Shown here piece by piece: positions 4,493 through 20,782 of a stretch of DNA of 34,710 bases (its first letter is position 1; each line of letters opens with the position of its first letter). The DNA comes from a virus. Lineage: Duplodnaviria > Heunggongvirae > Uroviricota > Caudoviricetes. The stretch covers positions 1 through 34,710 of IMG/VR virus record IMGVR_UViG_3300026484_000248; one strand, 5' to 3'. The notes under the pieces were generated by a model. The model had not been told where the DNA came from, searched no databases, and saw nothing but the letters and a program-made list of their open reading frames with translations. Made by a program: the position numbers and the translations under genes.

Positions 4493-4529
4493 GATTTAAT
4501 CCTATAGTTAAAATTATAAGAGCGTAAGG

Positions 4530-4549
4530 TGTGGGATAGCAGTCCCACA
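4530..4549. promoter_or_regulatory. GC-rich hairpin upstream of the endonuclease gene
   Basis: TGTGGGA-TAGCAG-TCCCACA, a 7-bp perfect stem in an AT-rich intergenic region. Confidence 0.5.
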
Positions 4550-4612
4550 TTATATATTTTTCAAGTACCACTAAGAGTAGATAACTTATCTATAATGTTG
4601 TTTATAAGCAGT

Positions 4613-5194
4613 TTAAATAGCTATTCGTTCTAGCATTAAACTTTTAATTAATTCTCTTGACTGCTCTGAAAATGAAACATATAATAACAATTTCTCTATT
4701 TTCTGTATTAGTATTTTATTAATTCTACTTTTACTAAGCTCTTCTAAAGATGCTTTGGGATCACTTGATGCCTCCAAATAAAAATAAAATGTAAACCATT
4801 TAATATTATTATTTCTGTACTCGTTGACCATATAGTCCAAATCTACTTTTGACTCCTCACTATTAATTCTGTCTATATCCTCTTTAAGAAATTTTCTATA
4901 ATTAATAATTTCATTTTTAAACTGAATAACTTTTTTGTCGTCTAAGTCTGTTAGTTTTTCAATAGCACCTACTAAAGAAGAAGGACCTTCTTTAAAGTTT
5001 ACATAAAGATTAGAAAGAATAAAATTTTCTCTGGTTTTTAACTTAAACTTAGCCGATGGAAAAATATATGACATTTGTTCCATTTTTTTAATACTATGTT
5101 TAACAGCAAAGCTCCGTTTATTAGACTCTTTATTGTGAAAAGTGGTAAAAATGCCAGCGCACATCTGATACATATCCTTAAAGCTGATACTCAT
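4613..5194 (-). CDS. gp59: Helicase loader gp59-like protein
   Basis: Segments FILSNL, FLKEDIDRI and NNIKWFTF resemble T4 gp59. Adjacent to a gp33-like gene, as in T4. Confidence 0.55.
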   Translation of the reverse strand: MSISFKDMYQMCAGIFTTFHNKESNKRSFAVKHSIKKMEQMSYIFPSAKFKLKTRENFILSNLYVNFKEGPSSLVGAIEKLTDLDDKKVIQFKNEIINYRKFLKEDIDRINSEESKVDLDYMVNEYRNNNIKWFTFYFYLEASSDPKASLEELSKSRINKILIQKIEKLLLYVSFSEQSRELIKSLMLERIAI

Positions 5195-5476
5195 CTACCA
5201 CTCCTCGTCTAACATCTCTATTTCATCAAATAAGTCGTTTTCCATTCTGAAATACCCATCTTTTGCTAAAGTTTTCCTAAATATTGAAGAAAAATCTTTA
5301 TTATCAGCAATAGTATTACCTATTTCTTGTAATGGTATATCTGTATAATGACTATATTCTATAATAGTTTCCAAGAAAGAGAGATCTTGAGCTCTTTCTT
5401 TTTTAAATTTAAAAATATCTTCTATTAACATCGTTGCCTTATGATAAAGTACTGCGTCGCTTTCTATTTTGTTCAT
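5195..5476 (-). CDS. gp33: Late-transcription co-activator gp33-like protein
   Basis: LSFLETIIEYSHYTDIPLQEI resembles the gp33 core. 93 aa, acidic C-tail, next to gp59. Confidence 0.55.
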   Translation of the reverse strand: MNKIESDAVLYHKATMLIEDIFKFKKERAQDLSFLETIIEYSHYTDIPLQEIGNTIADNKDFSSIFRKTLAKDGYFRMENDLFDEIEMLDEEW

Positions 5477-5498
5477 TTACATCCTTTACTGTTACTAT

Positions 5499-5520
5499 AT
5501 TATACAGTAGGGGAACTTAA
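5499..5520 (-). promoter_or_regulatory. TTAAG-N11-TATAAT promoter
   Basis: TTAAG-TTCCCCTACTG-TATAAT upstream of the gp33-like gene. Confidence 0.7.
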
Positions 5521-7590
5521 TTAAAGTTCTTCTACCGTTAATTTACTATATTTATCAATATCTATATGTATAAGCCTATCGAATAATTCTACCTTTTCTT
5601 TTATTTCGGGATTGTGTGAAATAATAATTATATTTTTAGTATTACTAAATTCACTTTTGAGTATCCCTAAAAGTTCTTCCCTACCTGATGCATCTACTGA
5701 GCTATCCAATATCTCATCCAGAACAAGTAAATTAGTTTTTACTCCGTTTCGTTCTTCAATTAATTTTAAGAAACTAAACATAATACTAAAGGAAATCCTA
5801 CTTTTTTGGCCATTACTTAAAGAGTTGAATTCACTATCGTCGTTTCTATTAATTAATCTTTCTTTAAAGTTTTCATCTATAATAAAACTATATTCTAATA
5901 AGCTAAATAATTCTAAGAAGTGATTAATCCCTTTATTTAAAAAAGGTATTTGTTTTTTAATAACAGCACCTTTCAAGTTATTTCCGTCTATAATTGTATC
6001 TAGATATAACAAATCATCTTTAATTTTTAATGACTTTTTAAGGTTTATTAGTAAAGCTTTCATTAAAGCTTGTTTTTCCTTATAAGAGTCATAATTTATT
6101 ATTATAGCTTTTATACTTTGTAATTCTAATAATTTATTTTTATAATATGCTAAATTATTTTCCTGTTCTGTAAGAGTTTCTTTTACCCTTTTCCCATTAA
6201 GTAATTTCTCTTTTAATTTATCTGCGTTAGTTTTGATGACTTGAATCTCTTTTTCTAACGGCACAAGTGTTTCTTGTAAAACCTGGGTTTGTTTGATAAC
6301 ATCTTCGTCTAATAATTGTTTTTTGGCATCTATACTATTTTTATTAATTTGTATACTTTCTTGTACAGTTGTCTTATATTCTTTTAAAGCAATTTCCAAT
6401 TTCTTAACTAAAGAAGTATTAAGATTAATTTTTGTTTTAATGTCTTTTATCAAAGATAGATATTCTTCTTTTTTATGTACTTCGTTATCACAAATTTCAG
6501 TTAAATAATTCGTGGTTTTGCAAGATACGCAAACTATAGAGTTTTTTTCTGCTGCTTCTATTATTTTAACTTTGTTGTCTAAATCCATTTTTTCAGAAGC
6601 TAAAGTTTGATTTTTTTGTTTAATTTCTTGTATTTGTGTTTCTTTAGTTTGTAGATAAAGAATATCATTTTCAGATATAGTACATTCTGAGATTAACTCC
6701 TGATATTTTTTCATATTTTTCTCTTGGATTTTCTGTATTTTTCTAGCATTTTCGCTTCGTTTTTTGTCCAAGTTGATAGTTAAATTACTAATATCTGCTT
6801 GTAGTTCATCATATTCTACTTTTAGAACCTTAAGTTTTTCTAAAGCGTCCTTATACTTCTGAATTGTTTCAGTTGTATTTGCTATATTTTCTTTAGTTAC
6901 TTTTAAATTTTCCTCGTGATGAGCCTTAAAATCGTCATTTTGTTTCTCCGCTTGCTCTATCATCAACTTTTCACTATCAATAGAAGATTTTAAAATATCT
7001 CGTTTGTATTCTAGTTCTTTTAATTCTTGCTTTATATCTGATGTTCTAACTTTAATGGCGGATTTAAGATGCCCAAATATACTGGTATCTGTAAGTACCT
7101 GAAATAAAGATTCTTTCTCACTTTGAGACAATTCCATAAAAGGCTTAGAACTTGGTAAATTAGACGATATAGCGACTAGTTGCCTAAAAATAGTTTCGTT
7201 GATACATAAAATTTCTTCTTCCAAGAATTTTTGGTAGTCTTTTGTGGCTGCTCGTTGTTCTATGAGTTCCCAACTTTGCCCTTCTTTTTTATAGATTTCA
7301 AATTTAGCTGGTTTTTGTCCTCTCAAGACTTTATAACTTAAATCGTCGATATTAAATATAACTTCTGTTTCTAATCTTTTTTTGATAATTCTATTTATTA
7401 AAGAACCTGTCTTTATTTTTCTAAAAGGCTTACCAAAAAGATTAAAAAATAAAACATCAACCATTGTCGATTTGCCCGTCCCATTTAAACCTATTGATAA
7501 GTCCATACCATTTTCTATATTTATGGTAGTATACTCATCTCCATAACTTAGAAAGTTTTTCCACTTTATAATTTTAATTTCTATATTCAT
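5521..7590 (-). CDS. gp46: Recombination endonuclease ATPase subunit (Rad50/SbcC-like)
   Basis: Walker A GLNGTGKST, long coiled coil with CVSC hook, signature LSNGQK, Walker B LLVLDEILD and H-loop ISH. Confidence 0.93.
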   Translation of the reverse strand: MNIEIKIIKWKNFLSYGDEYTTINIENGMDLSIGLNGTGKSTMVDVLFFNLFGKPFRKIKTGSLINRIIKKRLETEVIFNIDDLSYKVLRGQKPAKFEIYKKEGQSWELIEQRAATKDYQKFLEEEILCINETIFRQLVAISSNLPSSKPFMELSQSEKESLFQVLTDTSIFGHLKSAIKVRTSDIKQELKELEYKRDILKSSIDSEKLMIEQAEKQNDDFKAHHEENLKVTKENIANTTETIQKYKDALEKLKVLKVEYDELQADISNLTINLDKKRSENARKIQKIQEKNMKKYQELISECTISENDILYLQTKETQIQEIKQKNQTLASEKMDLDNKVKIIEAAEKNSIVCVSCKTTNYLTEICDNEVHKKEEYLSLIKDIKTKINLNTSLVKKLEIALKEYKTTVQESIQINKNSIDAKKQLLDEDVIKQTQVLQETLVPLEKEIQVIKTNADKLKEKLLNGKRVKETLTEQENNLAYYKNKLLELQSIKAIIINYDSYKEKQALMKALLINLKKSLKIKDDLLYLDTIIDGNNLKGAVIKKQIPFLNKGINHFLELFSLLEYSFIIDENFKERLINRNDDSEFNSLSNGQKSRISFSIMFSFLKLIEERNGVKTNLLVLDEILDSSVDASGREELLGILKSEFSNTKNIIIISHNPEIKEKVELFDRLIHIDIDKYSKLTVEEL

Positions 7591-8738
7591 TATAAATCCT
7601 TATTAACTGTTCTATCAATATCATTAAATATGTCTATTAATAATGGTATTAACTCTTCTTTATTTGATTTTACTGCTTCTGTAATTAAAGTTCTAGTATC
7701 TGAAGTATCTAACTCAACCTCTGAATCTTCTATATAATCAGTTCCGATTATCTCAGAAAGTTCTTCGTTGTTTATTACTGTTGAATTAACTCCTGCTTCT
7801 TTCATAGTATAAAGTATTTCATCAAAATGTCTATCTTTTGCTTTATTGATAAAAAACTTTATCTCATGCTTTTCTAAACTAGGTAATAGCTCTTTGTATT
7901 CTTCATCCGTTAAAAGCTTTCTATGCTTAAAAAGACCTGATACTTCAATATTTCTATCTGTATTTTGTTCGTCATTATATTTTACTTTAATGTATTTCTT
8001 ACTAGAGGTATTTTCAAAGAATTCCAAATAATCATCTTCATCCCAAACATAGAAACCTTTCTCTTCATCATAATCACTAAAATTATTTTGCCAAGGTGTG
8101 CCCAAATATTTAACTAATTTCTTTGTGTCCTTTAAATGAAAGTGACCGCTAAAAACATTTTTAACTTTAGTATTACCTGTAAAAAATTCAGTTGTCAATT
8201 TAGATGTTTCGTCCATATGACCTTTTACTAAGGCAAAGTGCCTAATTTCAAAGTGTCCTAAAACATTATGGCAATCTTTAATTTCATCATAAGTAAAATC
8301 TTCATCCTTTGTTATCCATGGTACGACATAAGTTTTATTTTTATTAATATTAATATAGGTTCTGTTCTCATATAGAATAAAATTATCAGGATAAAGATCT
8401 CTAAAGAATTTCACTAGGGTTACTTCTCTAGATTCACGATGAAAAATATCATGATTTCCTACTAAAGAATGTAAAATAAGATTCTTTTCTTTTATTTTAT
8501 CAAAAAATCTTATTCTTAATTCGTGGATAAAATTAATATCTGTAGTTGTTCTATTATCAAACAAATCACCTAATTGAAATATTTCAGTTATATTATGCTC
8601 TTTCATATAGGGAAATATCTGCTTATCTAATAAACTTAATTGGTCCTTAAGTGTTTCTATATTAAATCTTTTAATACCAAAGTGCATATCCCCTATTACT
8701 ATTAGTTTGCCGTTAATCTCTCTAGTTATTTCCTGCAT
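7590..8738 (-). CDS. gp47: Recombination endonuclease nuclease subunit (Mre11/SbcD-like)
   Basis: Metallophosphoesterase motifs GDMHFG, GDLFD, VGNHD and SGHFH. Start placed at ATG 8738 (TAATG overlap with the gp55 stop, SD AAGGAG) rather than at the track's GTG. Confidence 0.93.
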   Translation of the reverse strand: MQEITREINGKLIVIGDMHFGIKRFNIETLKDQLSLLDKQIFPYMKEHNITEIFQLGDLFDNRTTTDINFIHELRIRFFDKIKEKNLILHSLVGNHDIFHRESREVTLVKFFRDLYPDNFILYENRTYININKNKTYVVPWITKDEDFTYDEIKDCHNVLGHFEIRHFALVKGHMDETSKLTTEFFTGNTKVKNVFSGHFHLKDTKKLVKYLGTPWQNNFSDYDEEKGFYVWDEDDYLEFFENTSSKKYIKVKYNDEQNTDRNIEVSGLFKHRKLLTDEEYKELLPSLEKHEIKFFINKAKDRHFDEILYTMKEAGVNSTVINNEELSEIIGTDYIEDSEVELDTSDTRTLITEAVKSNKEELIPLLIDIFNDIDRTVNKDL

Positions 8739-9946
8739 TACCACTCCTTATCAAATTCTTCAACTTCACTAATTTCTTCTAGAGCTTTTTCGGGTTCTTG
8801 TTCTTTTTTCTTGACTTTTTGGGTTTCTTCAGTTATAATAAGATGTAAACCTTTTAGAGTTTCTTTAGAAGGAAAAGTAAAATTGCCTAACATTAAAGTA
8901 GAAGGTTTAATAATTCTTAAAGTATCTATCTTTGAGTTTTCTAAAATGGGCACAATCTTTTCTTCCATATCCCTAATATAATCTTCATAACTACTTGTCT
9001 TTTCTTCTTCAGGGGTAGTCTTTTTAATATATTTAATCTCTGAAATATTAGCGTTATTTGACTTTAAAATTTCATTAGAATCTTCTATATATTTTACGCC
9101 CTTTTCAATTGCTTCCTCAATATCTTTTAAAGTTCCATTAGATTTTATTTTAACAGAATATTCGTTTATAGGAATAATTTCTTCTTCTTCTATTTTATTA
9201 TCATTATTATAATGTTTAACCCCGTCTAAGTTTACTGATTCTAAAGAGATAGTATGTTTTAGAAATTCATCTTCCTTTTTTCTGATATTAATTATATTAA
9301 CAAAGGCATTAAAACAAATTTGAGTTATATAAGCAAAAGCATTACTTTTACCGCCGGTTCGTTTACTTAAAAGTTCTTCATCAAAATTATCTAAATACAA
9401 TAGAGTTTTTTCAATCGCATTACTAAAAAAGTCTGTTTTCCAGTTATCAGAATATCCACTAAAACTAGGCATTGTTGCTAAGTTTTTTATTATTAATAAA
9501 AGCATTTGGCCAAATTTTTCTTTAGACACTTCGGCTGTTAATTCAACAGTTTTAGCATATTCTAATAGTTGTTTGTCTGTAACTAAAGTTGCTGTGCTAT
9601 TTTCTTCTATTCGTTCTTCTAAAGACATAATATAATCAGCTCTCTTTATTTCAAATGCTTTAAGTACTTGTGAAGCTTTTATTGGTGCTTCCAAATTTTG
9701 GACATATTCTATATTATACCTAATTGCTTCCTGTGCTATATCGTTTTGAAACTGAACTTTAGTTGCATCTTTTCTAAAACGATTGATTTTCTTCTGCGAA
9801 TCGTAATCCCATTTTGCCCTAATTTCCTCTTCTGTTTTTTCTTCAATAGTTTTTAATTGATTGCTATACTTTAAAAAATATAATTGAAATTTTAGTCCTG
9901 GTTCTGAAACAAATTCCCGAATAGAGACTTTTTTCTTTTTAGTCAT
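8738..9946 (-). CDS. gp55: Late-transcription sigma factor, enlarged (402 aa)
   Basis: Core motifs FSGYSDNWKTDFFSNAIE..LDNFD and NAFAYITQICFNAFVNII are typical of gp55. Lies next to gp47 as in T4. Confidence 0.88.
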   Translation of the reverse strand: MTKKKKVSIREFVSEPGLKFQLYFLKYSNQLKTIEEKTEEEIRAKWDYDSQKKINRFRKDATKVQFQNDIAQEAIRYNIEYVQNLEAPIKASQVLKAFEIKRADYIMSLEERIEENSTATLVTDKQLLEYAKTVELTAEVSKEKFGQMLLLIIKNLATMPSFSGYSDNWKTDFFSNAIEKTLLYLDNFDEELLSKRTGGKSNAFAYITQICFNAFVNIINIRKKEDEFLKHTISLESVNLDGVKHYNNDNKIEEEEIIPINEYSVKIKSNGTLKDIEEAIEKGVKYIEDSNEILKSNNANISEIKYIKKTTPEEEKTSSYEDYIRDMEEKIVPILENSKIDTLRIIKPSTLMLGNFTFPSKETLKGLHLIITEETQKVKKKEQEPEKALEEISEVEEFDKEW

Positions 9947-10031: not shown

Positions 10032-10496
10032 ATGTCTAATAGAAACTTCACGCATAATAGCAATTTTACTTTTCAAACTAATCTTTTCGGAGATAATACA
10101 ACTTACGGAATTCAAGAAGTCGCTTTACCTGGCATGAGTTTTTCACATATTCAAGTAGCCCGACAATCTGTTTTAGGTAATTTACAAGGAGATACTCTAA
10201 ATTATAATGATTTAAGTATTAATATTATTATGGACGAAGAATTAAAAATCTGGAAGGAAATAGTAAGTACTTTACAAGATAAAATGAGAAGTCCTGATCA
10301 AGGTATTGGTAAACAAGTTGAGAAAATAGGGTTTCTAGAGATTCAAGATGACAATACACATAAGGTACTTAAATTAGAATTTCACGGAATGATGATTGAA
10401 AGTATAGATGATTTAAGTTATAATACCAATTCAGAAGATGATATTATAACTGTAGGAGTTAATCTAAAGTATGATTATTATACAATAGTTAATTAG
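10032..10496 (+). CDS. gp3: Tail completion / tube terminator protein gp3-like
   Basis: NFTF..QEVALPGMSF..GDTLNYNDLSINIIMDEEL..W pattern of the gp3/gp19 family. The only clear plus-strand gene; has a late promoter. Confidence 0.75.
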   Translation: MSNRNFTHNSNFTFQTNLFGDNTTYGIQEVALPGMSFSHIQVARQSVLGNLQGDTLNYNDLSINIIMDEELKIWKEIVSTLQDKMRSPDQGIGKQVEKIGFLEIQDDNTHKVLKLEFHGMMIESIDDLSYNTNSEDDIITVGVNLKYDYYTIVN

Positions 10497-10627: not shown

Positions 10628-12385
10628 CTAGTTGGAAACTTTAATAATTATTTTATATTCTGGTAAGTAAAGATACTCTAATTTTGATTTCTCTAATGTA
10701 TATAATGCATCATCTATTGTTTCAACAAGTGGGTCACCACCTAAGTTAAAAGATGTATTAAATACTAAAGGAACACCAGTTTGATTTTTAAACTCTGTTA
10801 TCAGATTATGATAATGCTCATTTTGGTCTTTTGTAACTGTCTGAATTCTACAAGTTCCATCAATATGAATTACGCTTGGAATTTTTTCTTCTACGCCTGG
10901 TTGACAATTAACAGCATACATCATATGAGGTGAGCTTTCCATTCCTCTTAAATCGAACCAATCTTTCGTGTCTTCTTTAAGTACAGATGCTGCAAACGGT
11001 CTAAAATATTCTCTATTTTTAATAAGATTTACATAATCTTTACCATCTTTAAAAGTTGGGTCAAACATTAAACTTCTGTTTCCTAATGCTCTTGGTCCAT
11101 TTTCTGATTTACCCTGGAACATAGCAACAATATTTTTATCTCTCATAATTTTAACTGCATCTGCATAAGTTGCATTAGTGTTAATAATTTCAGCATTTTG
11201 TACTTTCGCTACTGCATTTGCAATATCTTCATCTGAATAATTATATTCAAAACCGAAATATAAAGTATCACTTCTTTTTCTTACGGTTGAATCATTAGTT
11301 ACTTTATGATATTGTGCCATAGCAGCACCAATGGCAGTTCCAGCATCATTTGAAATTGGTTCAACATATAAGTTAATACCTTCATCTTTTAATTGTCCTA
11401 AATACCAGTAATTAGCAACACAATTTAATCCATATCCACCTGAAATAACAACATTTTTATTTCCTGACATTTTAACCGCTTTTCTAATTAAATCAAGAAC
11501 TTGTTGTTGAGATTGTGTTTGAACAGCATAAGCCATATCTCGTCTATTTTGAAGTAATGTAACATCTTCAACTTCTTCAAAAGGACCTTCTAATTCTTTA
11601 TATTTATTTGCATTTACTAAAGCACCATTTGGATATGTAGGAATAATTAAATTTCTATTTGTACTTGTCCAAGCGGCTAATCCATCTTCATTATGATAAA
11701 TTTTTGGAATTTTTAAGTTCTCTTTTCCATAAGGAAAAAGTCCCATTGTTTTACCTGCTTCTATAGGTTGCCATCCACAATATTGGGTAACAGCTTCATA
11801 AGCTTTTACAATACCTGCACTTTCATTTATAACTGTTTCACAACCTTTATTATCGGTAAATCTGGCACTACCAAACGGTCCTCTTCCACCAATATGAGTA
11901 TAAATTTTCTTAAACTCTGCTGGATAAGCACACTCAAATATTGATTCTGTTTCCCATACGGTTTCTTGGCCCATTGATAAAAATGTTCCGGCTCCATCAA
12001 CGATTAATGAAACTGCTTTTTCAAAACCACTTCTATAAAAAGCTACTGCTGCATGCTGTTCATGATGATTTTCATGAACCTCAATTACTTTTTTATCTAT
12101 ATCTTTTTCATCTATAAGTCTTAATTTTCTTATAAGAGCTTTATAAACAGTATCTCCTGAAAAATCAGTTCTTGAATCATCTTCTTGTGTATGAGAAATC
12201 ACCAAATAATCTAATTTATCCGTATAATCTAAAATTTTAACTATAGAAGCATAAGGTCCACCATCATATTTTTTTCTTGATAATCGTTCTTCTTCTATAC
12301 TAAAAACAACTTCTCCATCTTTTAGTAAACAAACTCCACCATTATGACCTCTTGCTATACCTGCGATATATCCTGTTTTATTCAT
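10628..12385 (-). CDS. O-carbamoyltransferase (NodU/CmcH/TobZ family)
   Basis: EEERLSRKK, HHEQHAAVAF, DGAG, AGKTMGLFPYG, SGGYGLNCVAN, NDAGTAIGAA, GPRALGNRS, REYFRPFA, HIDGTCRIQTV and NTSFN. Confidence 0.92.
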   Translation of the reverse strand: MNKTGYIAGIARGHNGGVCLLKDGEVVFSIEEERLSRKKYDGGPYASIVKILDYTDKLDYLVISHTQEDDSRTDFSGDTVYKALIRKLRLIDEKDIDKKVIEVHENHHEQHAAVAFYRSGFEKAVSLIVDGAGTFLSMGQETVWETESIFECAYPAEFKKIYTHIGGRGPFGSARFTDNKGCETVINESAGIVKAYEAVTQYCGWQPIEAGKTMGLFPYGKENLKIPKIYHNEDGLAAWTSTNRNLIIPTYPNGALVNANKYKELEGPFEEVEDVTLLQNRRDMAYAVQTQSQQQVLDLIRKAVKMSGNKNVVISGGYGLNCVANYWYLGQLKDEGINLYVEPISNDAGTAIGAAMAQYHKVTNDSTVRKRSDTLYFGFEYNYSDEDIANAVAKVQNAEIINTNATYADAVKIMRDKNIVAMFQGKSENGPRALGNRSLMFDPTFKDGKDYVNLIKNREYFRPFAASVLKEDTKDWFDLRGMESSPHMMYAVNCQPGVEEKIPSVIHIDGTCRIQTVTKDQNEHYHNLITEFKNQTGVPLVFNTSFNLGGDPLVETIDDALYTLEKSKLEYLYLPEYKIIIKVSN

Positions 12386-12412
12386 TTTTATCCTTATTTT
12401 TTCTATTAATGT

Positions 12413-12434
12413 ATTATATTATAATTCTACTTAA
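12413..12434 (-). promoter_or_regulatory. TTAAG-N11-TATAAT promoter
   Basis: TTAAG-TAGAATTATAA-TATAAT upstream of the carbamoyltransferase, with a second TTAAG 5 nt further upstream. Confidence 0.7.
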
Positions 12435-12452
12435 GATTTCTTAATGTTGTAG

Positions 12453-13451
12453 CTATTTACTACAACATTTTCCTGAACTGCAAGATTTTTTCTCTTCTAC
12501 TTGCACTGGTTCTGTATTCATTGTTCCTTTAACATAATTAGAAATACTAATTATATCAGATTCTTGTATATTAAAACATTCTTCATTATTCATTTCCACT
12601 CTTTCATCTTGTGAAATTCTAATAGGGCTGTATTCTCTTGTATCTTTACCTAAATCAATAGTATTGTAATTTTTTGCTCCTGGATATCCAACATTTTCTG
12701 GAAATGTGCTACCAAAAATAACAGTACAAGGTTTATTTAAACCAAAAGCAATATGTTGTCCAACACTATCACACCCCACAAAATGGTCTGCTTGTTTAAT
12801 TACTGATGCCCATTCTCTTAATGAAACATTTATAGTTCCCACTTTTACGTCAGAAGGAGTTTGAATATCTATATTTGCCATCACCATTACAACTGAATGC
12901 TTACTTAACTCTCTAATAATGTCAATTGCTGCTTCATAAGTAATACTTCTTCCACTAGGGTCAAATATTTTACCATTTTCATTAACAACTCCTGAACCAA
13001 ACGGTTGGAAAACTACCATATTAGATTTTCCTGATTGCTGTTTAATATCATTAACAATCATTTGACCTTTAGAAATTTCACTTCTAGTTAAAGAAACTTG
13101 TGCTCTATAATCTTCATAATTATCTGACATATCTCCATTAATTTCTATATCGAAACCTTGTGCAATATTACATTCCTGATTATAATATTTTTTATTCCTA
13201 TAAGGTTCAACTGGAACTATTACAGAATCTTTTATAAAGTCCTTAAATAAATCTTTATGATTTGTATGATAAGTTCTTTTATGAAGTAATTTGTTATTTT
13301 TGAAAAAATCATCTGAACCTTCAGCAACGATAATAAAATCTTCACCTTTTACAGCAAGTTTTTCCAAAGCAGGAATTGAAGCTAGTACTCTACCGGCACC
13401 ACCATTGATAAATATTGACTTTTTTGTTTGATTTTCTGTCTTGTTTGACAT
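12453..13451 (-). CDS. GT-B glycosyltransferase, GT9 (heptosyltransferase)-like
   Basis: N-terminal GGAGRVLASIPALEKL and C-terminal FVGCDSVGQHIAFGLNKPCTVIFGST match the GT9 patterns GD..++.P.+..L and DSG..H+A.A+..P.+.+FG.T. Confidence 0.7.
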   Translation of the reverse strand: MSNKTENQTKKSIFINGGAGRVLASIPALEKLAVKGEDFIIVAEGSDDFFKNNKLLHKRTYHTNHKDLFKDFIKDSVIVPVEPYRNKKYYNQECNIAQGFDIEINGDMSDNYEDYRAQVSLTRSEISKGQMIVNDIKQQSGKSNMVVFQPFGSGVVNENGKIFDPSGRSITYEAAIDIIRELSKHSVVMVMANIDIQTPSDVKVGTINVSLREWASVIKQADHFVGCDSVGQHIAFGLNKPCTVIFGSTFPENVGYPGAKNYNTIDLGKDTREYSPIRISQDERVEMNNEECFNIQESDIISISNYVKGTMNTEPVQVEEKKSCSSGKCCSK

Positions 13452-13466
13452 TGATTTCCTTTGTGT

Positions 13467-13487
13467 AAAAGGAGCAAGGCTCCCTTT
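13467..13487 (-). terminator. Terminator/attenuator-like hairpin in the glycosyltransferase leader
   Basis: Minus strand AAAGGGAGC-CTT-GCTCCTTTT, between the late promoter and the RBS. Confidence 0.4.
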
Positions 13488-13492
13488 ATGTT

Positions 13493-13500
13493 TATTTATA
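13493..13500 (-). promoter_or_regulatory. T4-type late promoter TATAAATA
   Basis: Exact motif upstream of the glycosyltransferase. Confidence 0.6.
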
Positions 13501-13517
13501 TCTTATGTTGTAAAATT

Positions 13518-13540
13518 ATTATAACATAACTTTTACTTAA
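13518..13540 (-). promoter_or_regulatory. TTAAG-N12-TATAAT promoter
   Basis: TTAAG-TAAAAGTTATGT-TATAAT, with an extended -10 TG. Confidence 0.6.
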
Positions 13541-13543
13541 AAT

Positions 13544-13987
13544 CTATACTTCTATTTTGTCTAAAACAGCTATTAAAGCCTCTGTTAATTCTGGATTAAT
13601 TTTTTTATTTTGTGTTACCATTTTTTGTATATTTTTAATATTAGATAAATCATCTTCTTTTACTTCTTCTAATATTAAATTATTTTCTTCATCAATTATA
13701 AAGTTATGATTATTAAAAACTTTATATAAAGATGCATCATCAATATCATCATTATCTGCAATTTCCATATCATTATATTGTTCCCACAAATATGCAACTA
13801 ATAATTCATTTCCTTTTGTCTCAATTTTACCATATTTGTACAGAAAACTAGGATCTTCTTTAAATGTTTCTTCTTTATCGCTAGCATATAAAATAGCACC
13901 TGTTGTATCATCCAATCTTGTGAAAAGTACTTTTGGTACTTTTCTTTTGATTTTTTGATTTTTTATTTCAATTTCAATTTCAATCAT
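13544..13987 (-). CDS. Hypothetical acidic protein
   Basis: 147-aa ORF with SD AGGAG, directly downstream of the Cys/Gly-rich gene. No recognised motif. Confidence 0.6.
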   Translation of the reverse strand: MIEIEIEIKNQKIKRKVPKVLFTRLDDTTGAILYASDKEETFKEDPSFLYKYGKIETKGNELLVAYLWEQYNDMEIADNDDIDDASLYKVFNNHNFIIDEENNLILEEVKEDDLSNIKNIQKMVTQNKKINPELTEALIAVLDKIEV

Positions 13988-13998
13988 CTTATTTCTCC

Positions 13999-15042
13999 TT
14001 ATTTGTATCTTACTAAAACTTGCCCAGTATTACCATAAGCACCATATCCATTACCGTTACAACAAGAACCGTTCCCGCCTCCCCAGCCACCTCTACCTGG
14101 ACCTCTATCTATATTATAGAAACAACAACCACCACCAGAAACAACAGCATGACAACAGCATGCTGATAAAGTGTGATCATTATGAACATGAACAGCAGAT
14201 ATAGCAAATCTATTTTGATGACAACTACTTGTTGAGATACCTCTTCTTGCTTTAACGCCTGCAACATCTATTAAATTTTCATTTTCCGATAAACAAACAC
14301 AAAAATTACCAAAATTGTCATCCGCAAACCCGTCTCTATGTGCGACAGTGTAAGAATATCCATAATCACAATCACATTGATCACCTGTATATATATGTCT
14401 AAATCCTGCACAAGAACAAGCACTTCCACCACAAGCGACAGCTCTAAAACATTTTCCTCCTTCACATCTACAAACAAACGATGTGCAACCATGACAAGCA
14501 TATGCACCAGGACAAGCACCACTTTGACAAGCACCACCAGCACAAAGAATATATTGATCACCAGGTTTCACTTTTACTTTTGTATAAAGATATGCACCGT
14601 CAGCACCGTTTCGCCCAAATCCACAACAAGTTGCATATCCTGTTCCGTTCCCGCCTGCACCCCAAATCTGAAATTCAGCTATAGAAACACCACTTGGAAC
14701 AGTCCAGGTACAAGATTTTCCGCCACTTCCACCACACCAATTTGTTGTACCATCATTTACTGTAATTGTACCAGTTATATTGGACATTAATTCCGGTAAT
14801 TTTATGTCAAGTGAACTATAAGAAGCTCCACATTTACCAGAACAAGCACCATTGGTTTTTTTAGACCCACCATTTAAAAAACTCGCACTTTTTTCTAATT
14901 TAGTTTCTGTTGTAGAAATTCTTTCATCAAAACCATTTACTGTTTTGGTTAATTCTTTTGAAACTGCCGCTGCATCCTTAACAACTTTATCGGTTTTAGT
15001 TTTTACCGCTTCTCCTATTTGTGTTAATATACTTTTTGCCAT
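13999..15042 (-). CDS. Cys/Gly-rich protein (glycine-rich domain), probable virion fibre/appendage component
   Basis: N-terminal coiled coil, then CTWTVPSGV..EFQIWGAGG and VKVKPGDQYILCAG, typical of glycine-rich domains in phage fibres. About 29 Cys by my count. Late promoter upstream. Confidence 0.65.
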   Translation of the reverse strand: MAKSILTQIGEAVKTKTDKVVKDAAAVSKELTKTVNGFDERISTTETKLEKSASFLNGGSKKTNGACSGKCGASYSSLDIKLPELMSNITGTITVNDGTTNWCGGSGGKSCTWTVPSGVSIAEFQIWGAGGNGTGYATCCGFGRNGADGAYLYTKVKVKPGDQYILCAGGACQSGACPGAYACHGCTSFVCRCEGGKCFRAVACGGSACSCAGFRHIYTGDQCDCDYGYSYTVAHRDGFADDNFGNFCVCLSENENLIDVAGVKARRGISTSSCHQNRFAISAVHVHNDHTLSACCCHAVVSGGGCCFYNIDRGPGRGGWGGGNGSCCNGNGYGAYGNTGQVLVRYK

Positions 15043-15061: not shown

Positions 15062-15069
15062 TATTTATA
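15062..15069 (-). promoter_or_regulatory. T4-type late promoter TATAAATA
   Basis: Exact motif upstream of SD AAGGAG and ATG 15042. Confidence 0.7.
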
Positions 15070-15100: not shown

Positions 15101-15436
15101 TTACCCAGCGAAAGCTGCAGTAAAATCGTCAATAGTGCCAAATTTATCTTCAGAAATAAGTTTTTCTTGATAATCGGATCTTACTGAAACAACTGCCCCA
15201 CTTGCCGGAGCAGTTTTAAAAGTAATCTTACCAGTTTTAGCATCTGCTGTGTAATCTTTAGAATCTACAACTTTACCGTTTAACATTACCACTAAAGTGT
15301 CTTTATCAAACGATTTAGTAAAACTAACTTCGTTACCGTTTCCTGCAAATTCTTCTGCAGGGGCTATAAAGTTTTCTTTAAATCCTGCTATTATTTTCTC
15401 ATTTCTCTTTGCCATTGTATATGCTATAATATCCAT
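15101..15436 (-). CDS. Small virion structural / fibre-associated protein
   Basis: FAGNG..VSF..LVVMLNGKVV..DYT..GKITFKTAPASGAVVSVR, a beta module common in T4-like virion proteins. Confidence 0.55.
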   Translation of the reverse strand: MDIIAYTMAKRNEKIIAGFKENFIAPAEEFAGNGNEVSFTKSFDKDTLVVMLNGKVVDSKDYTADAKTGKITFKTAPASGAVVSVRSDYQEKLISEDKFGTIDDFTAAFAG

Positions 15437-15459
15437 TTTTAATTCCTCCTATTTTTAAC

Positions 15460-16692
15460 TTACGCTAGTAAATTTTTTATTGCAACTTCAGTAACTTTAC
15501 CGTCATCGTCATAGCTAGTAGTTACTTTTTGTTTACTAATATCAGTTTCTTCAATTAGTTCAGTAATATCACCGTCATCATTTCTTACAATATCGTGTAC
15601 ATATAATGAACCTTCTGTGTACTCTTTAATAGTACTATCATCATTATAAGTAATAGTCATAGGACGAGAATGTTGAATTAATTTAATCTTATTATCGGCA
15701 TCTATTTTATTAATTAAATCTTTATTGATATAAAGTTGACCTGTATTTTGTGCAATCGAGAACTGAGCCCCTTTATAAACATACCCCATTTCCTCATCAA
15801 AAATATGAGTTAATTGAGTTCCAAGTAAAGCAAAATCTGTAATTCTAATTAAACTCATTCCGCCCGTTTTAAAAGGCAAGTGTTTTTCTGCATCAACACC
15901 AATACTCATTGTAGCATCTGGATTTTCTAATTTAAAACTTTCTGAAACCTCAACTTCAACTATTTTTGTACCTGAAGAAGCATCGACCATCGCTAATGAC
16001 GCTCCATCTCTTATAACAGCAATCATCATCCATTTGTCAAGCATATCAGCTTTTTCAACATCCGTAGTTAAATCATAAGTCTCATCTGTTCTATGACTAT
16101 AAACTTTAAAATGGAAAACATTATCGGCGTCTAAAGATGCTTTAATCCAATCTCCATCTCTTTTTGATGAATCGTCTTCATTAACTTTTGCCCATTCAAA
16201 CATTGTTTGGTCATAGTCATAATCTCCAATTTTTACCCATCCTAGTAAAGACCAGTTTCTATTACTAAATTGTCTACCGTTAGTAGTTTCTAATTCCAAG
16301 TAGTTGTCTGTAGTAAATCCGGAATATGCTTGTAATGCTGAACCATCTGCGATAGGGGCACTATCAACAGTCCCTGTTTCAACAAGGTCATTTCTATATA
16401 TACCTCTATCTTTTAATTTACTATTAACCAACCAAGTTCCTACTGTATCTCCTGGGGACCAATCTGAAGTATTAACTGATTGAGCACCTTTTGCCATATA
16501 AGTCCAGTTATCACCATCAATAACACCATCTGTTTTTGGTTGATTATCTTTGTTTGGTTTATCTACTGTACCTGTTTTTGATATAAATGTATCTCCTTCA
16601 TAAAATACATAATCATCTATTACATATTCTGTTGCCGCTGAATAATCACCCTTTTGAACAATTTTAATGTTCCCTAAATTAATTTTCATCAT
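15460..16692 (-). CDS. Putative tail fibre / receptor-binding protein with LamG (ConA-like) domain
   Basis: N-terminal NLGNIKIVQKGDYSAATEYVIDDYVFYEG carbohydrate-binding-like module. Central NWSLLGWVK..WMMIAVIRDG..MSIG..GGMSLIRI is a LamG-like pattern. Confidence 0.6.
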   Translation of the reverse strand: MMKINLGNIKIVQKGDYSAATEYVIDDYVFYEGDTFISKTGTVDKPNKDNQPKTDGVIDGDNWTYMAKGAQSVNTSDWSPGDTVGTWLVNSKLKDRGIYRNDLVETGTVDSAPIADGSALQAYSGFTTDNYLELETTNGRQFSNRNWSLLGWVKIGDYDYDQTMFEWAKVNEDDSSKRDGDWIKASLDADNVFHFKVYSHRTDETYDLTTDVEKADMLDKWMMIAVIRDGASLAMVDASSGTKIVEVEVSESFKLENPDATMSIGVDAEKHLPFKTGGMSLIRITDFALLGTQLTHIFDEEMGYVYKGAQFSIAQNTGQLYINKDLINKIDADNKIKLIQHSRPMTITYNDDSTIKEYTEGSLYVHDIVRNDDGDITELIEETDISKQKVTTSYDDDGKVTEVAIKNLLA

Positions 16693-16716
16693 AATTAAAT
16701 TTCTCCTTTGTTTCTT

Positions 16717-17226
16717 TTATTTATGTTTGCTAAGTAACAAGTTACCTTTAGCATTTATGTTAAAATGTATATCTTTTTCAATTATCCAATATAAATAATC
16801 GTCTGGATTTACTTCAATATCAGTATCTTCAAAACCAGCAATTTCCGATTTGCCTTCATCTTCATCAAAAACATGAACTTCTAAAGAATTTCTATCTTCT
16901 GATCTTTTAATCCCAAGGAATTGAGTTTTTGCTGTTAATTGTAATGCTCCACTATTAATATAAGCCAAAAGACTTTCTCTACTAAGAGCTTCTTTTTCTT
17001 CTACTTTAGCTACTTCAGCAAAAGTTTGCATTGTCATTTCTGATAATGCTATATTTTTTTCTTCCAAATATTGAATTTGTTCTAAAGTTAATGCGGGTTT
17101 CACAAATGTTTTTGAAATTCCGTTTTCATAATCTTCGATTACAACAATTCTTCCTTCTGGAACTTTATCTATACCAGTTTCATCTTTACTTTTAAAATGA
17201 TAATTGGGTTTTCTTGAATATCCCAT
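16717..17226 (-). CDS. Hypothetical protein in the fibre cluster
   Basis: 169-aa ORF with strong SD AGGAGG, co-oriented with fibre genes. Confidence 0.6.
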   Translation of the reverse strand: MGYSRKPNYHFKSKDETGIDKVPEGRIVVIEDYENGISKTFVKPALTLEQIQYLEEKNIALSEMTMQTFAEVAKVEEKEALSRESLLAYINSGALQLTAKTQFLGIKRSEDRNSLEVHVFDEDEGKSEIAGFEDTDIEVNPDDYLYWIIEKDIHFNINAKGNLLLSKHK

Positions 17227-17321
17227 ATTTTCCTCCTTTTGTCGAGACTTATTTTAATATTTCTCACGATAATATATATCTCAATTTTAAACCAACTAAG
17301 AAAATTTCCTAATCTTATTAT

Positions 17322-17329
17322 TATTTATA
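17322..17329 (-). promoter_or_regulatory. T4-type late promoter TATAAATA
   Basis: Exact motif in the 17227-17361 intergenic region. Confidence 0.55.
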
Positions 17330-17361
17330 AAATATATATTATTAAAATAGTGCTTAATTTA

Positions 17362-18531
17362 TTACCAAGTAACTATATTTACCCAGTCACCTTCTGATAA
17401 TTTATTTTCTAAAAAGATAGTTTCCCCATCAGTCGCTTCATAAGTGCTATTTTTTAATTTAATCCCCTCTACAAATATTTGTATTTGACCAGGTATATAA
17501 GTTAAATCAATTTTATATTGATCTTCTTCAGCTTCGATATCATGTTCTTTATATTCAAAATGGAAATCTTTTTTGGTTAAAAGTGGATAATATTCAACCC
17601 CGTCTACTGTAATTTCCCATTTAGATGCTGTTTCATTCCATCTAAGTTGCACATTCTCTTCTGAACCCCTATTTACTTCAAACCCAACATTTTCGTTTGG
17701 TTGAGCTTCTGAGTCTTGATCTGCGTTTAAAAGAATAATATTATCAGACATTTCTATAACATTAGAATTCATTTTTACTATATCACCTAAAACTTCAAGA
17801 GATTTAGTTATAACTACATGATTATCTAATGTTAATTTGTTATCTTCGTTTAACGCTTTAATAGTATTTTTAAGAGTAAGATTTTTTGTTATATTTAATC
17901 CACCTACTATTTCAATTGTACTATCACCTATTACACCATTTTCATTATCGACAGAATTGATTTTATTGCCATTAATAGTAATTTCTTTATTAACAAGTAA
18001 ATTTTCTGAAATATCAACATTACCTTTAATTTCTAAAGTATCTGAACCCTCAACACCATCAGCATCAACAGTAATTATTTTTCCTGAAGTTTTTACATCA
18101 CCTTTAAATTCAGCATCCATACCAACAGAAATATTACTTGCCATCTCAACATCACCAGAAACACCAAGTGCTTTAGAAATTATTACAGTACCGTCAATTG
18201 CTATTGAGCCAGCGCCAGCCACATCATTATTATCTTTAGTAATAATTGTACTATTAAAATTAATATTATCTTCAATTGTAGCAGTTTGGCTTATTACAAT
18301 ATGTTTAGTAATATCTACTGATCCCTCAATAACAACTGTACCAAGACCATCTTTACCATCTGCATCTGTTGTTTTAACTGTATCAGTTACTTCTAAATAT
18401 TTGGTTACTGTTTTTCTTAAGTCTAATTGAGTTTTGTCAATTTTATTTACCAATTGTTTTAAAGGTCTATTTAAAGTTTCCTCATTTGCTCGCTCTCCAT
18501 TGGCAAACCATTCTATATCATCATATACCAT
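17362..18531 (-). CDS. Tail fibre-like protein with beta-strand repeats
   Basis: N-terminal GERANEETLNRPLKQL, short V/I-x-G repeats, and DNIILLN..GFEVNRG..QLRWNETASKW as in T4-like fibres. Confidence 0.65.
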   Translation of the reverse strand: MVYDDIEWFANGERANEETLNRPLKQLVNKIDKTQLDLRKTVTKYLEVTDTVKTTDADGKDGLGTVVIEGSVDITKHIVISQTATIEDNINFNSTIITKDNNDVAGAGSIAIDGTVIISKALGVSGDVEMASNISVGMDAEFKGDVKTSGKIITVDADGVEGSDTLEIKGNVDISENLLVNKEITINGNKINSVDNENGVIGDSTIEIVGGLNITKNLTLKNTIKALNEDNKLTLDNHVVITKSLEVLGDIVKMNSNVIEMSDNIILLNADQDSEAQPNENVGFEVNRGSEENVQLRWNETASKWEITVDGVEYYPLLTKKDFHFEYKEHDIEAEEDQYKIDLTYIPGQIQIFVEGIKLKNSTYEATDGETIFLENKLSEGDWVNIVTW

Positions 18532-18551: not shown

Positions 18552-18559
18552 TATTTATA
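18552..18559 (-). promoter_or_regulatory. T4-type late promoter TATAAATA
   Basis: Exact motif upstream of SD AAGGAG and ATG 18531. Confidence 0.7.
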
Positions 18560-19311: not shown

Positions 19312-19319
19312 TATTTATA
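19312..19319 (-). promoter_or_regulatory. T4-type late promoter TATAAATA
   Basis: Exact motif overlapping the Hef-like stop codon. Confidence 0.6.
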
Positions 19320-20736
19320 AAATATATTTTAGATTACCTGAGTCATAAATCTCATAAATATTGTTATTATGACAATTTTCAATGGCGGTTAAAGAAATAT
19401 CAAATTTTTCTAAAATATTCGGTAATTTATGTTTCTGGTATTTTTCTCTAGAAGCTAAATTTAAGTTTTCAATATAAAAATGATTAGGTTTTATAATGTC
19501 AATTAAGTTTCCTATTTTACTATAAACATTATTTTTTGAGGAAAACCTTCTATCAGCAAAAGTAATAATGTCTTCTTTAAAAATGTTTTTAGCATATTTA
19601 AGTAACTTGTTAAAACCTCCTACTACAGTTGTATTTAAAATAGAACAACTTCTTTTCAGTTCCAAATATTTAGCTTTACTTCTATGAGATCTTTTAAAAG
19701 TTATTAATTGTATAAGATTATTATTAAAATATAATCCATATCTATGTGGAGCATTATCCTTTCCTTGTATATGATTATCTTCAAGAAATTTATTTGATTC
19801 CTTACTAGAAACTTCTTTTATAGTACATTTTCTTGCAAAAAATCTATTAGTATTTAATCCAAGTTTTGATTTTAAAATACTTTTAACTATTTCTTTTTTG
19901 AGAATCCATTCATTTTCAAATATATGAATTAGTTGAATATTATTATTTTCACAAATCTCAGTTTTATTAAAATGATATTTTTTATCCTTAAACAAAGAAG
20001 AATGTCCATATAGACCGTTATATTCTATAGCTATGCCTAAATCAGGAATGTATATATCCAATTCTATACCTAAACTTCTATCATTTTCTAAAACTTTTCC
20101 AGTATATAAGGATGTTATAAATTCTAAAACTTCCTTTTCTTGTAAAGAATAACCTTTAATTTTAGGAACACATTTTCTGCATATAATTCCATTAAAAATA
20201 TTTGCTCTTTCCCAAATATGCCCGCATTTATTGCATTTAAACTTTTGGCTTTCAGAACAATTTTTGAACTCATTTATTAAACTAACATTATTTAATTTTA
20301 GTAGTAAAGGCAGTTTTTTATTTAGGAAATGTTTCTTATTTCCTTCTATTTTTCCTTCTATATGAAATTTATTAGAACATTCTACTGAACAAGTATCAAC
20401 ATATCTATTCTCTTCTTTTTTGAATTTACACTTTACTTTGTTGCATTGCTTACATAAAGGTTTTTCTGTTATTTGATTTTTTATTATAAATATAGCTTCT
20501 TTATAAGAGTCAGCTATTTGTGTATCTATATAGTTTTTTATAAGGAAGTTTTGAACTTGTTTATTTTTATATAAAGATCTTTCTCCTAATGTAGATTCTA
20601 TAAAATCAATATATTCTAACGGAGATAATTGTAATACCTCGTTAGAATAAAGTAAAAACTTCTTATATTCTCTTTTATATTTTTGTCGTTCTTTTAATGG
20701 TAGGTCTCGGATTTCTTCTTTACTAAGTTCTTTAAT
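19315..20736 (-). CDS. Hef-like homing endonuclease (~473 aa) with probable ATT start
   Basis: The frame is open from 20748 to 19315. It has CxxC modules, then LDIYIPDLGIAIEYNG..H (Vsr/DUF559-like nuclease) and FLEDNHIQG..VVGGF.KLL..TFADRRFS..YDSG as in Hef proteins. SD AAGGAG lies 6 nt before ATT 20736. Confidence 0.8.
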   Translation of the reverse strand: MKELSKEEIRDLPLKERQKYKREYKKFLLYSNEVLQLSPLEYIDFIESTLGERSLYKNKQVQNFLIKNYIDTQIADSYKEAIFIIKNQITEKPLCKQCNKVKCKFKKEENRYVDTCSVECSNKFHIEGKIEGNKKHFLNKKLPLLLKLNNVSLINEFKNCSESQKFKCNKCGHIWERANIFNGIICRKCVPKIKGYSLQEKEVLEFITSLYTGKVLENDRSLGIELDIYIPDLGIAIEYNGLYGHSSLFKDKKYHFNKTEICENNNIQLIHIFENEWILKKEIVKSILKSKLGLNTNRFFARKCTIKEVSSKESNKFLEDNHIQGKDNAPHRYGLYFNNNLIQLITFKRSHRSKAKYLELKRSCSILNTTVVGGFNKLLKYAKNIFKEDIITFADRRFSSKNNVYSKIGNLIDIIKPNHFYIENLNLASREKYQKHKLPNILEKFDISLTAIENCHNNNIYEIYDSGNLKYIL

Positions 20737-20757
20737 AATAAACTCCTTTTATAGTTT

Positions 20758-20779
20758 ATTATATTTATATTATTCTTAA
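20758..20779 (-). promoter_or_regulatory. TTAAG-N11-TATAAT promoter with nested late TATAAATA (20762-20769)
   Basis: TTAAG-AATAATATAAA-TATAAT directly upstream of the Hef-like SD. Confidence 0.65.
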
Positions 20780-20782
20780 CAA

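Follow-up and report, generated by a model that had tools for sequence, protein, structure and literature searches.

Co-inheritance of a phage-restricted GT9-fold glycosyltransferase and an O-carbamoyltransferase with Cys/Gly-rich fibre-tip-like proteins in T4-like phages: a candidate system for fibre-tip decoration

A gene pair for a glycosyltransferase (GT) and a carbamoyltransferase (CT) has been annotated in cyanophages among the lipopolysaccharide (LPS) genes, or 'LPS genes', since 2005-2010 (PMC3037559). In cyanomyoviruses the pair forms a cassette of T4-GC 302 (a hypothetical protein) and T4-GC 303 (a Nol-like carbamoyltransferase), carried by P-SSM2, S-SSM7, S-CAM1, S-CAM3, P-SSM5 and Sf-FS3. 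Here we describe a version of this pair in the IMG/VR record IMGVR_UViG_3300026484_000248, which stems from an uncultured T4-like myophage with 29% G+C and nearly every gene on the minus strand. The stretch of DNA that was analysed, hereafter the window, comprises 34,710 nucleotides (71% A+T), the first 34.7 kb of a 100,462-bp contig with a CheckV completeness of 46%. In the window, a GT9-fold GT of 332 amino acids (aa; 12453..13451, minus strand) lies directly upstream of an O-carbamoyltransferase of 585 aa (10628..12385, minus), and both are preceded by an acidic 147-aa orphan open reading frame (ORF; 13544..13987, minus) and by a Cys/Gly-rich, fibre-tip-like protein of 347 aa (13999..15042, minus). 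An original prediction, made from the letters of this DNA, had placed the same four ORFs at these positions, and had known of no characterised pathway for the combination; while the ORFs stand as drawn, the gene pair itself belongs to the cyanophage annotations just cited. As detailed below, the conserved unit consists of one or more Cys/Gly-rich fibre-tip proteins together with GT and CT, transcribed late with the virion genes. The explanation we favour, with a confidence that sits about midway between doubt and conviction, is a late cytoplasmic heptosylation followed by O-carbamoylation of the co-inherited fibre-tip proteins.

The cyanomyovirus cassettes resemble the window in running from GT to CT (GT 42-45%, CT 46-64% identical) and in lying downstream of tail fibre genes and Cys/Gly-rich paralogues. 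The window differs from them in its carrier, a T4-like phage of 29% GC whose gp46 is ~30% identical to cyanophage gp46, as well as in having no heptose-supply genes in the sequenced 100 kb and no Phage_tail_APC chaperone-like gene. Against the phage collection as a whole, gp46 of the window phage reached ~30% identity to any phage, with cyanophages as the top matches, and a megablast search of the region against 50,697 phage records returned no match.

The closest characterised chemistry comes from the Pseudomonas LPS inner core, which contains 7-O-carbamoyl-L-glycero-D-manno-heptose and is assembled by WaaC and WaaF along with the putative 7-O-carbamoyltransferase WapO (PA5005), encoded in the same cluster as the LPS-core genes (PMC8005017; PMC7168646). 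These are the same enzyme classes as in the phage pair, which makes the chemistry plausible. However, the phage GT has only the donor motif in common with WaaC and WaaF, carries an Arg at the position of WaaC Asp13 and a non-basic acceptor domain, and occurs in phage fibre modules only, and the likeness drawn here between the phage CT and WapO is one of enzyme class. A second parallel is offered by TibC and Aah with their adhesins TibA and AIDA-I, where a GT9-like enzyme is encoded beside its adhesin substrate, which is heptosylated in the cytoplasm. TibC matches the model of the window GT with template-modelling (TM) scores of 0.55-0.58 at ~12% identity, and the acceptor, an adhesin in these systems, is predicted from gene context for the window GT. 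To our knowledge, no carbamoylation step is part of the TibC/Aah systems. Phages are also known to glycosylate their own virion proteins: a passage in PMC11256854 cites mycobacteriophage virion glycosylation, and the same passage takes two glycosyltransferase genes to suggest capsid glycosylation. The mycobacteriophages differ from the window in the glycosyltransferase families involved, in their targets (capsid and tail tube), in their Gram-positive-type hosts and in lacking a carbamoyl group. Finally, a phage-encoded carbamoyltransferase of the same two-domain Pfam family as the window CT, found by MetaGPA, acts on 5-hydroxymethylcytosine (PMC8670742); it has thymidylate-synthase-like partners and a DNA or nucleotide substrate, whereas the window CT sits in a context of a glycosyltransferase and fibre genes.

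The evidence that carries our reading is the co-inheritance of the three genes, for which the original prediction had proposed a gene-neighbourhood comparison. With 2770 proteins at E<=1e-5 in a protein search, the GT family is a large one, and a scan of viral contigs with the family alignment yielded at least 505 confirmed loci, whereas a scan with the single GT sequence had yielded nothing. Neighbourhoods were analysed for the best 80 of these loci by clustering all ORFs and annotating the cluster representatives. In 77 of the 80, CT adjoins GT in the same orientation (downstream of it in 76), and in the three others the locus ends no more than 1.4 kb from GT. Where the flanks extend to at least 7-8 kb, which is the case for 41 loci, every locus contains CT as well as a Cys/Gly-rich gene within 2.3 kb of the GT-CT block, so that GT, CT and the Cys/Gly-rich gene proved co-conserved in every locus that could be evaluated. 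The Cys/Gly-rich gene lies upstream on the same strand in 35 of these 41; in the remaining six, the block of fibre, tip and chaperone genes is found downstream in reverse orientation, still adjoining GT-CT, which means that the linkage survives rearrangement. Two Cys/Gly-rich queries against the 50,697 phage records matched GT-CT carriers only (S-SSM7/S-SSM6a, Sf-FS3, P-SSM2/P-SSM5, AG-345-F15, S-CAM1 and S-CAM3), and the low-GC relatives L084 and L085 also pair Cys/Gly-rich proteins with GT-CT, L084 having heptose genes in addition. Identities of GT and CT correlated in a mirror-tree comparison (Pearson 0.67), a value confounded by shared ancestry that we did not use as evidence.

The recurrent gene order starts with a long fibre (~1100 aa), followed by one to three Cys/Gly-rich paralogues, a Phage_tail_APC chaperone-like gene (~240 aa), GT and CT. 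In 24 of the best 80 viral loci, a 298-aa gene is inserted between GT and CT. Downstream of CT follow either heptose-supply genes (CTP_transf_like, PfkB, phosphoheptose isomerase, cupin and SDR epimerase; 19 of the 41 full-flank loci) or one to three copies of an unannotated 294-aa gene (21 of the 41). The two are almost mutually exclusive, a single locus containing both. Neither the 298-aa nor the 294-aa gene has matches in Pfam or PHROGs, and neither is present in the window; weak atlas leads liken the former to DUF6071/GDSL proteins and the latter to fibres. In the cultured phages P-SSM2, S-SSM7 and S-CAM1, the same GT-CT order is accompanied by heptose-supply genes.

The GT family is restricted to phage fibre modules. 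A scan of 185,579 prokaryotic species, each represented by one genome, found just 11 loci, all of them on contigs of metagenome-assembled genomes (MAGs) and all with GT-CT. Ten of these contigs contain fibre or Cys/Gly-rich homologues and the eleventh (L098) baseplate and fibre-assembly genes, and we take all 11 to be mis-binned phage DNA. L098 harbours the most divergent pair (GT 38%, CT 40% identity), in which baseplate genes are followed by two Cys-rich proteins, by Phage_tail_APC directly upstream of GT, by GT-CT and by a HAD phosphatase and an epimerase. The two L098 proteins (670 and 249 aa; 4162-6923 of that contig) consist of 9-10% Cys, are rich in Trp and could not be related by sequence to the Cys/Gly family; what is conserved seems to be a high content of cysteine. 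A remote GT homologue was found in Vibrio phages, without CT and between two giant virion or tail genes.

The original prediction had called the GT GT9-like, and at the level of the fold this held. The Pfam family Glyco_transf_9 (PF01075) matches with 27.7 bits (cut-off 22), over residues 209-265 only (57 residues), and the protein was assigned to the phage-only family phrog_8954. Its AlphaFold2 model (AF2; predicted local distance difference test score, pLDDT, 88) has a GT-B fold with two Rossmann-like domains, and the 30 best Foldseek matches in the PDB are all GT9 enzymes (E 1.6e-9 to 4e-6, TM 0.38-0.60), among them 3tov, TibC (4rap/4rb4), WaaC (2gt1/2h1f/2h1h/6dfe) and WaaF (1psw). The match to the protein heptosyltransferase TibC is as good as those to WaaC and WaaF. 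In contrast, the NCBIfam equivalogs for heptosyltransferases I, II and III scored 15-26 bits against cut-offs of 135-467. When the GT family was compared with Escherichia coli WaaC and WaaF by hhalign, only the C-terminal nucleotide-sugar (donor) motif D-(S/T)-G-x-x-H aligned, the acceptor domain not being mappable by profile: D228-S229-V-G-Q-H233 of GT aligns to D261-T262...H266 of WaaC and to the WaaF equivalent, and D228, S229 and H233 are invariant in 30 family members.

Two features tied to the acceptor chemistry of the LPS core appear to be missing from this enzyme, even though fold and donor site, as modelled and aligned, are those of GT9. The stretch G-R-V-L-A-S-I-P-A-L of GT aligns locally with G-D-V-L-H-T-L-P-A-L of WaaC (score 31, a value reached by 3 of 500 shuffles), which places the invariant Arg21 at Asp13, and the Arg21 motif occupies the matching strand-loop-helix position in the GT model. 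Asp13, in the N-terminal G-D motif, is the catalytic Asp of WaaC. The N-terminal domains also differ in net charge, which is +8 in WaaC (isoelectric point, pI, 10.0) and +5 in WaaF (pI 9.4) versus a median of -1 in the phage family (pI 6.4) and 0 in the window GT. Because of the Arg at the position of Asp13 and the near-neutral acceptor domain, the phage GT does not look like an LPS-core enzyme in its sequence. At its C-terminus, GT ends in a Cys-rich tail, C-S-S-G-K-C-C-S-K (12453-12482), and a Cys at the C-terminus belongs to the family consensus by majority. The tail may bind a metal or form disulfides, a point of interest by analogy since TibC carries an iron-finger.

The CT was correctly recognised in the original prediction as a complete member of the NodU/CmcH family. 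It is of the TobZ/NodU/NovN/GdmN type, its N-terminal domain being Kae1-like and its C-terminal one YrdC-like, and both Pfam domains score far above their cut-offs (Carbam_trans_N 2e-27, 97 bits, cut-off 24; Carbam_trans_C 1.9e-57, 193.9 bits, cut-off 27). It matches phrog_1601 at 3e-169 and is 64% identical to the CT of S-SSM7. A 15-member CT profile aligns over both domains to the solved 7xb6, NovN, GdmN and TobZ, and the motifs common to the solved enzymes (H-H-x-x-H, D-G-x-G, N-D-A-G, GPRALGNRS, RPFA, H-x-D-x-T-x-R and NTSFN) are invariant in the 15-sequence alignment, with H107/H108/H111, D130, D347, GPRALGNR 430-437, RPFA 462-465, H507/D509/R513 and NTSFN 543-547 as the corresponding positions in the window protein. 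By the residue roles in TobZ, these motifs belong to the metal site and the carbamoyl-adenylate site. The protein is therefore best read, from its motifs, as a probably active ATP- and carbamoyl-phosphate-dependent O-carbamoyltransferase. Orthology to NodU itself was considered and ruled out (NCBIfam equivalog NF041651, 144 bits against a cut-off of 1000), leaving family membership only.

The third member of the unit contains 29 Cys and 56 Gly residues in its 347 aa, and a family of 19 relatives aligned with it averages ~10% Cys and ~18% Gly. Conserved in this family are C-x-W-T-V-P...W-G-A-G-G...C-C and a C-terminal P-G-x-G-G...G-x-V-x-V-x-Y. The AF2 model (pLDDT 64; residues 85-205 form a confident core) predicts a 55-residue N-terminal helix and then a glycine-rich beta domain, for which the best Foldseek matches in the PDB are a fibre of cyanophage Pam3 (7ypx, E 8e-5), the Bxb1 tail tip (9d93, E 1.3e-4) and the glycine-rich domain of ALK/LTK (probability 1.0), at TM scores of only 0.2-0.4. 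In BFVD, 161 matches were obtained at E<=0.001, headed by a P-SSM2 protein, and many of those listed are named 'glycine-rich domain-containing protein'. With moderate confidence in the fold, we regard the protein as a small fibre or fibre-tip (receptor-binding) protein. A predicted complex of GT with the Cys/Gly-rich protein scored 0.00, a value obtained without controls that speaks neither for nor against binding.

In a CT tree, the window and the low-GC contigs L084-L086 (28-33% GC) form a fully supported clade. This clade nests beside that of S-SSM7 and far from that of P-SSM2 and S-CAM1, a placement that suggests the cassette moved laterally between phage lineages. Compared with its nearest relative, L086, the window shows a sharp recombination boundary at 12417..12502, in or near the GT-CT spacer: DNA identity is 92-100% from ~12416 down to 8632 and 97-100% from CT through gp55 and gp47, falls to 57-89% across GT, and upstream of GT the two sequences cannot be aligned, the upstream gene being unrelated. 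At the protein level this corresponds to 99.1% identity for CT and 64% for GT, and of 18 locus pairs whose CTs share at least 95% identity, window and L086 are the sole pair with a divergent GT. GT therefore lies on the variable, host-recognition side of the boundary.

As to expression, T4-type late promoters TATAAATA are located 42 nt before the GT start codon (13493..13500, minus) and 20 nt before the Cys/Gly-rich gene (15062..15069, minus). With 19 copies against 13.2 expected, the count of TATAAATA in the window is not above chance; its placement is, however, telling, since 10 of the 12 minus-strand copies precede a start codon by 19-42 nt, and positions at this distance make up 5.7% of the window. 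The unusually long 42-nt leader of GT is accounted for by a 5-bp G+C-rich hairpin (13471..13483, minus) between late promoter and start codon. No TATAAATA motif precedes CT, which is probably co-transcribed with GT. The original prediction had assigned GT both a late and an early-type promoter, of which the placement of TATAAATA bears out the late one. The early-type promoter amounts to an extended -10-like TGTTATAAT (13518..13526, minus) with a weak consensus match and a poor -35, and a scan of the region for sigma-70-type promoters found no excess of sites in this 71% A+T DNA.

Taken together, we propose that GT would transfer a sugar from a nucleotide donor in the cytoplasm of the infected cell onto an acceptor made by the phage, for which the adjacent Cys/Gly-rich tip protein, or the fibre capped by it, is the likeliest candidate. 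The donor would most likely be ADP-heptose or a tailored heptose; about half of the relatives would supply it from genes of their own, and here it would come from the host or from the unsequenced half of the genome. CT would then use carbamoyl phosphate and ATP to O-carbamoylate a hydroxyl of the sugar added by GT, which would leave the host-recognition end of the virion decorated with carbamoyl-heptose. In this scheme we infer which sugar is donated, in which order the two enzymes act and, most of all, what the acceptor is. Tip proteins are favoured as acceptor because their linkage to GT-CT is strict and withstands rearrangement, because expression is late and because the GT is found in phages only; further reasons are that the GT has apparently lost acceptor features of the LPS type, that the pair occurs in phages with presumably very different hosts, and that cyanobacterial LPS is stated, in a passage of PMC4515613, to be devoid of heptose and of Kdo, the usual acceptor context of GT9 enzymes. 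Heptose as the sugar finds contextual support in the genes for a heptose kinase, nucleotidyltransferase, isomerase and epimerase that follow the pair in those 19 of 41 loci and in cultured cyanophages. Carbamoyl-heptose would be the most economical product, given that the Pseudomonas core heptose laid down by GT9 enzymes carries a 7-O-carbamoyl group ascribed to WapO.

Several points weigh against this proposal. The target is predicted from gene context, sequence and models, and an enzyme that masks the receptor would show the very same linkage to receptor-binding genes. Glycosyltransferases in host-recognition clusters of marine myophages have been interpreted as modifiers of the host surface (PMC7029224), Sullivan et al. 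2010 regarded the 'LPS genes' as being of unknown function and possibly stuffer DNA (PMC3037559), and the closest characterised chemistry, that of WaaC/WaaF and WapO, acts on LPS. The replacement of Asp13 by Arg was assigned from a short local alignment and a matching position in the model, not from a structural superposition, and the model of the Cys/Gly-rich protein is of moderate confidence. Besides, neither tblastn nor Pfam found heptose-supply genes in the 100-kb contig, which is 46% complete, and the donor in the window phage is therefore a guess.

The most serious competitor to tip decoration, which the original prediction had listed next to fibre glycosylation with carbamoylation and to DNA modification, is a remodelling of the host surface. 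GT and CT would add a carbamoylated sugar to the host envelope glycan that serves the adjacent tips as receptor, be it LPS or lipooligosaccharide core, O-chain, capsule or S-layer glycan, and would thereby prevent superinfection or keep progeny from adhering to debris; the two enzymes would travel with receptor-binding genes as each cassette targets one receptor. We consider this possible, yet clearly less probable than a modification of the tips. Its linkage to receptor-binding genes fits, and so does the swap of the GT allele together with the variable fibre side between window and L086; GT9 enzymes and Pseudomonas WapO do act on the LPS core (PMC8005017), the heptose-supply genes of the relatives are genes of the LPS type, and such a role has been proposed for host-recognition clusters of marine myophages (PMC7029224; PMC3037559). 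On the other hand, neither the catalytic Asp of WaaC and WaaF nor their basic surface for binding the lipid A core seems to be present in the window GT, and its family was not found in any cellular LPS cluster among the 185,579 species genomes. The same pair is present in cyanophages (median locus GC 38%) and in the 29% GC phage, and hosts are presumed to be very different on account of this GC difference and of the ~30% identity of gp46; the cyanobacterial LPS described in the above passage of PMC4515613 offers neither heptose nor Kdo, and expression is late rather than early. If the host envelope were the target nonetheless, the GT-CT pair would be a portable receptor-masking cassette.

Less probable still, and in our view unlikely, is an acceptor of another kind, such as a different virion protein (sheath or capsid decoration), a host protein or a small glycoside, in which case the position in the fibre region would merely reflect a hypervariable insertion hotspot. 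The closest solved relatives of CT, namely TobZ, NovN and GdmN, act on small molecules, a tryptophan halogenase, 2-oxoglutarate (2OG) oxygenases and cupins lie nearby in some relatives, and the fibre region is known as a hotspot where accessory genes collect (PMC7029224). A hotspot alone, however, fails to explain why the pair adjoins one and the same family in 41 of 41 loci, through inversions and across distant lineages, and family annotation of the window ORFs identified no further biosynthetic genes in the window. As for DNA hypermodification, in which CT would carbamoylate 5-hydroxymethylcytosine or a base-linked sugar and GT would glycosylate DNA, precedents exist in phage DNA glycosyltransferases and in the phage carbamoyltransferase of the same Pfam family that makes 5-carbamoyloxymethylcytosine (PMC8670742). 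We nevertheless deem it highly improbable here: in that study, CTs that modify DNA are accompanied by thymidylate synthase, dCMP deaminase and MazG-like genes, while those of unmodified contigs adjoin glycosyltransferases (PMC8670742), and the window pair has the latter context, is transcribed late among fibre genes and is accompanied by no thymidylate-synthase/dCMP-hydroxymethylase homologue (PF00303) in the 100-kb, 46% complete contig. A putative decoration of the fibre tip with a carbamoylated sugar remains the best-supported of the explanations originally listed, in that its expected co-conservation is borne out.

The 147-aa gene, which the original prediction had listed beside the pair, is not part of the conserved unit as judged from its replacement by other genes even in the nearest relative. 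Its slot is taken by a 2OG-Fe(II) oxygenase in L086 and by a fibre-assembly-chaperone-like or DUF6445 gene in cyanophage-type loci; the 147-aa protein itself has no match in Pfam, PHROGs or NCBIfam, nor similarity to the Cys-free 227-aa neighbour protein in L084. A conserved step of hydroxylation preceding glycosylation was entertained and dropped, as the L086 2OG oxygenase is not detectably related to the cyanophage-type DUF6445 genes.

Upstream of the Cys/Gly-rich gene, four late genes encoding proteins of 111, 410, 169 and 389 aa (15101..18531, minus), with further late promoters at 17322-17329 and 18552-18559, are candidates for distal fibre or receptor-binding proteins. No database homologues of them were found in Pfam or PHROGs, nor of the 410-aa protein by tblastn against phages; beta-helix-like repeats and a weak match to Bactofilin were seen in the 389-aa protein. 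That GT and CT are co-oriented with, and downstream of, fibre genes stands as far as orientation is concerned, while these four genes are fibre-like by position, late promoters and repeat or beta-helix-like sequence only. In the direction of transcription, baseplate genes (gp48-, gp5-, gp25- and gp6-like, 34.7 to 26 kb) are followed by a gene for a 1563-aa protein and several smaller late genes without homologues and then by the GT-CT locus, beyond which lie a gp55-like late sigma factor, gp47/gp46 and the clamp loader. The sigma factor (8738-9946, minus; 402 aa) is sigma-like from about residue 124 and has an N-terminal extension of ~120 residues without known family. Between it and CT, a plus-strand ORF of 154 aa (10032-10496) with its own late-type promoter TATAAATA at 10006-10013 matches the middle and C-terminal part of the tail-tube family phrog_45 (1e-18) and is kept in L086. 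Among the fibre-region genes, a 248-aa ORF with a TTG start (19315-20782, minus) matches only the C-terminal half of HNH homing endonucleases of ~540-600 aa (phrog_3339, phrog_559), and the 720 bp upstream of it contain no ORF of at least 60 aa; it may be a decayed or split endonuclease.

In summary, relative to the cyanophage 'LPS genes', the present work adds a low-GC, non-cyanophage carrier from a distant T4-like lineage and, with it, a minimal three-gene version of the system, consisting of tip protein, GT and CT without adjacent sugar-supply genes. It further adds the sharp recombination break between GT and CT as well as the apparent Asp-to-Arg replacement and the charge differences that separate this GT from LPS heptosyltransferases. 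A bolder formulation, which we hold somewhat more loosely than the favoured explanation itself, is that marine T4-like phages run a dedicated protein O-heptosylation and O-carbamoylation on Cys-rich, Gly-rich fibre-tip adhesins by means of a phage-only, Arg-for-Asp offshoot of GT9, with the GT allele being exchanged together with the tip genes upon a shift in host range, as the recombination break suggests. The GT family is abundant in ocean metagenomes, and what it does has been a question of annotation ever since cyanomyophages were first sequenced. If the proposal is true, a carbamoylated protein glycan and a heptosylated virion would both be firsts, and the cyanophage 'LPS genes', unexplained since 2005, would be accounted for. 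With the fibre tip as the target, these phages would chemically edit their own receptor-binding surface, which would bear on host-range prediction, on how marine viruses adsorb and decay, and on the engineering of fibres.

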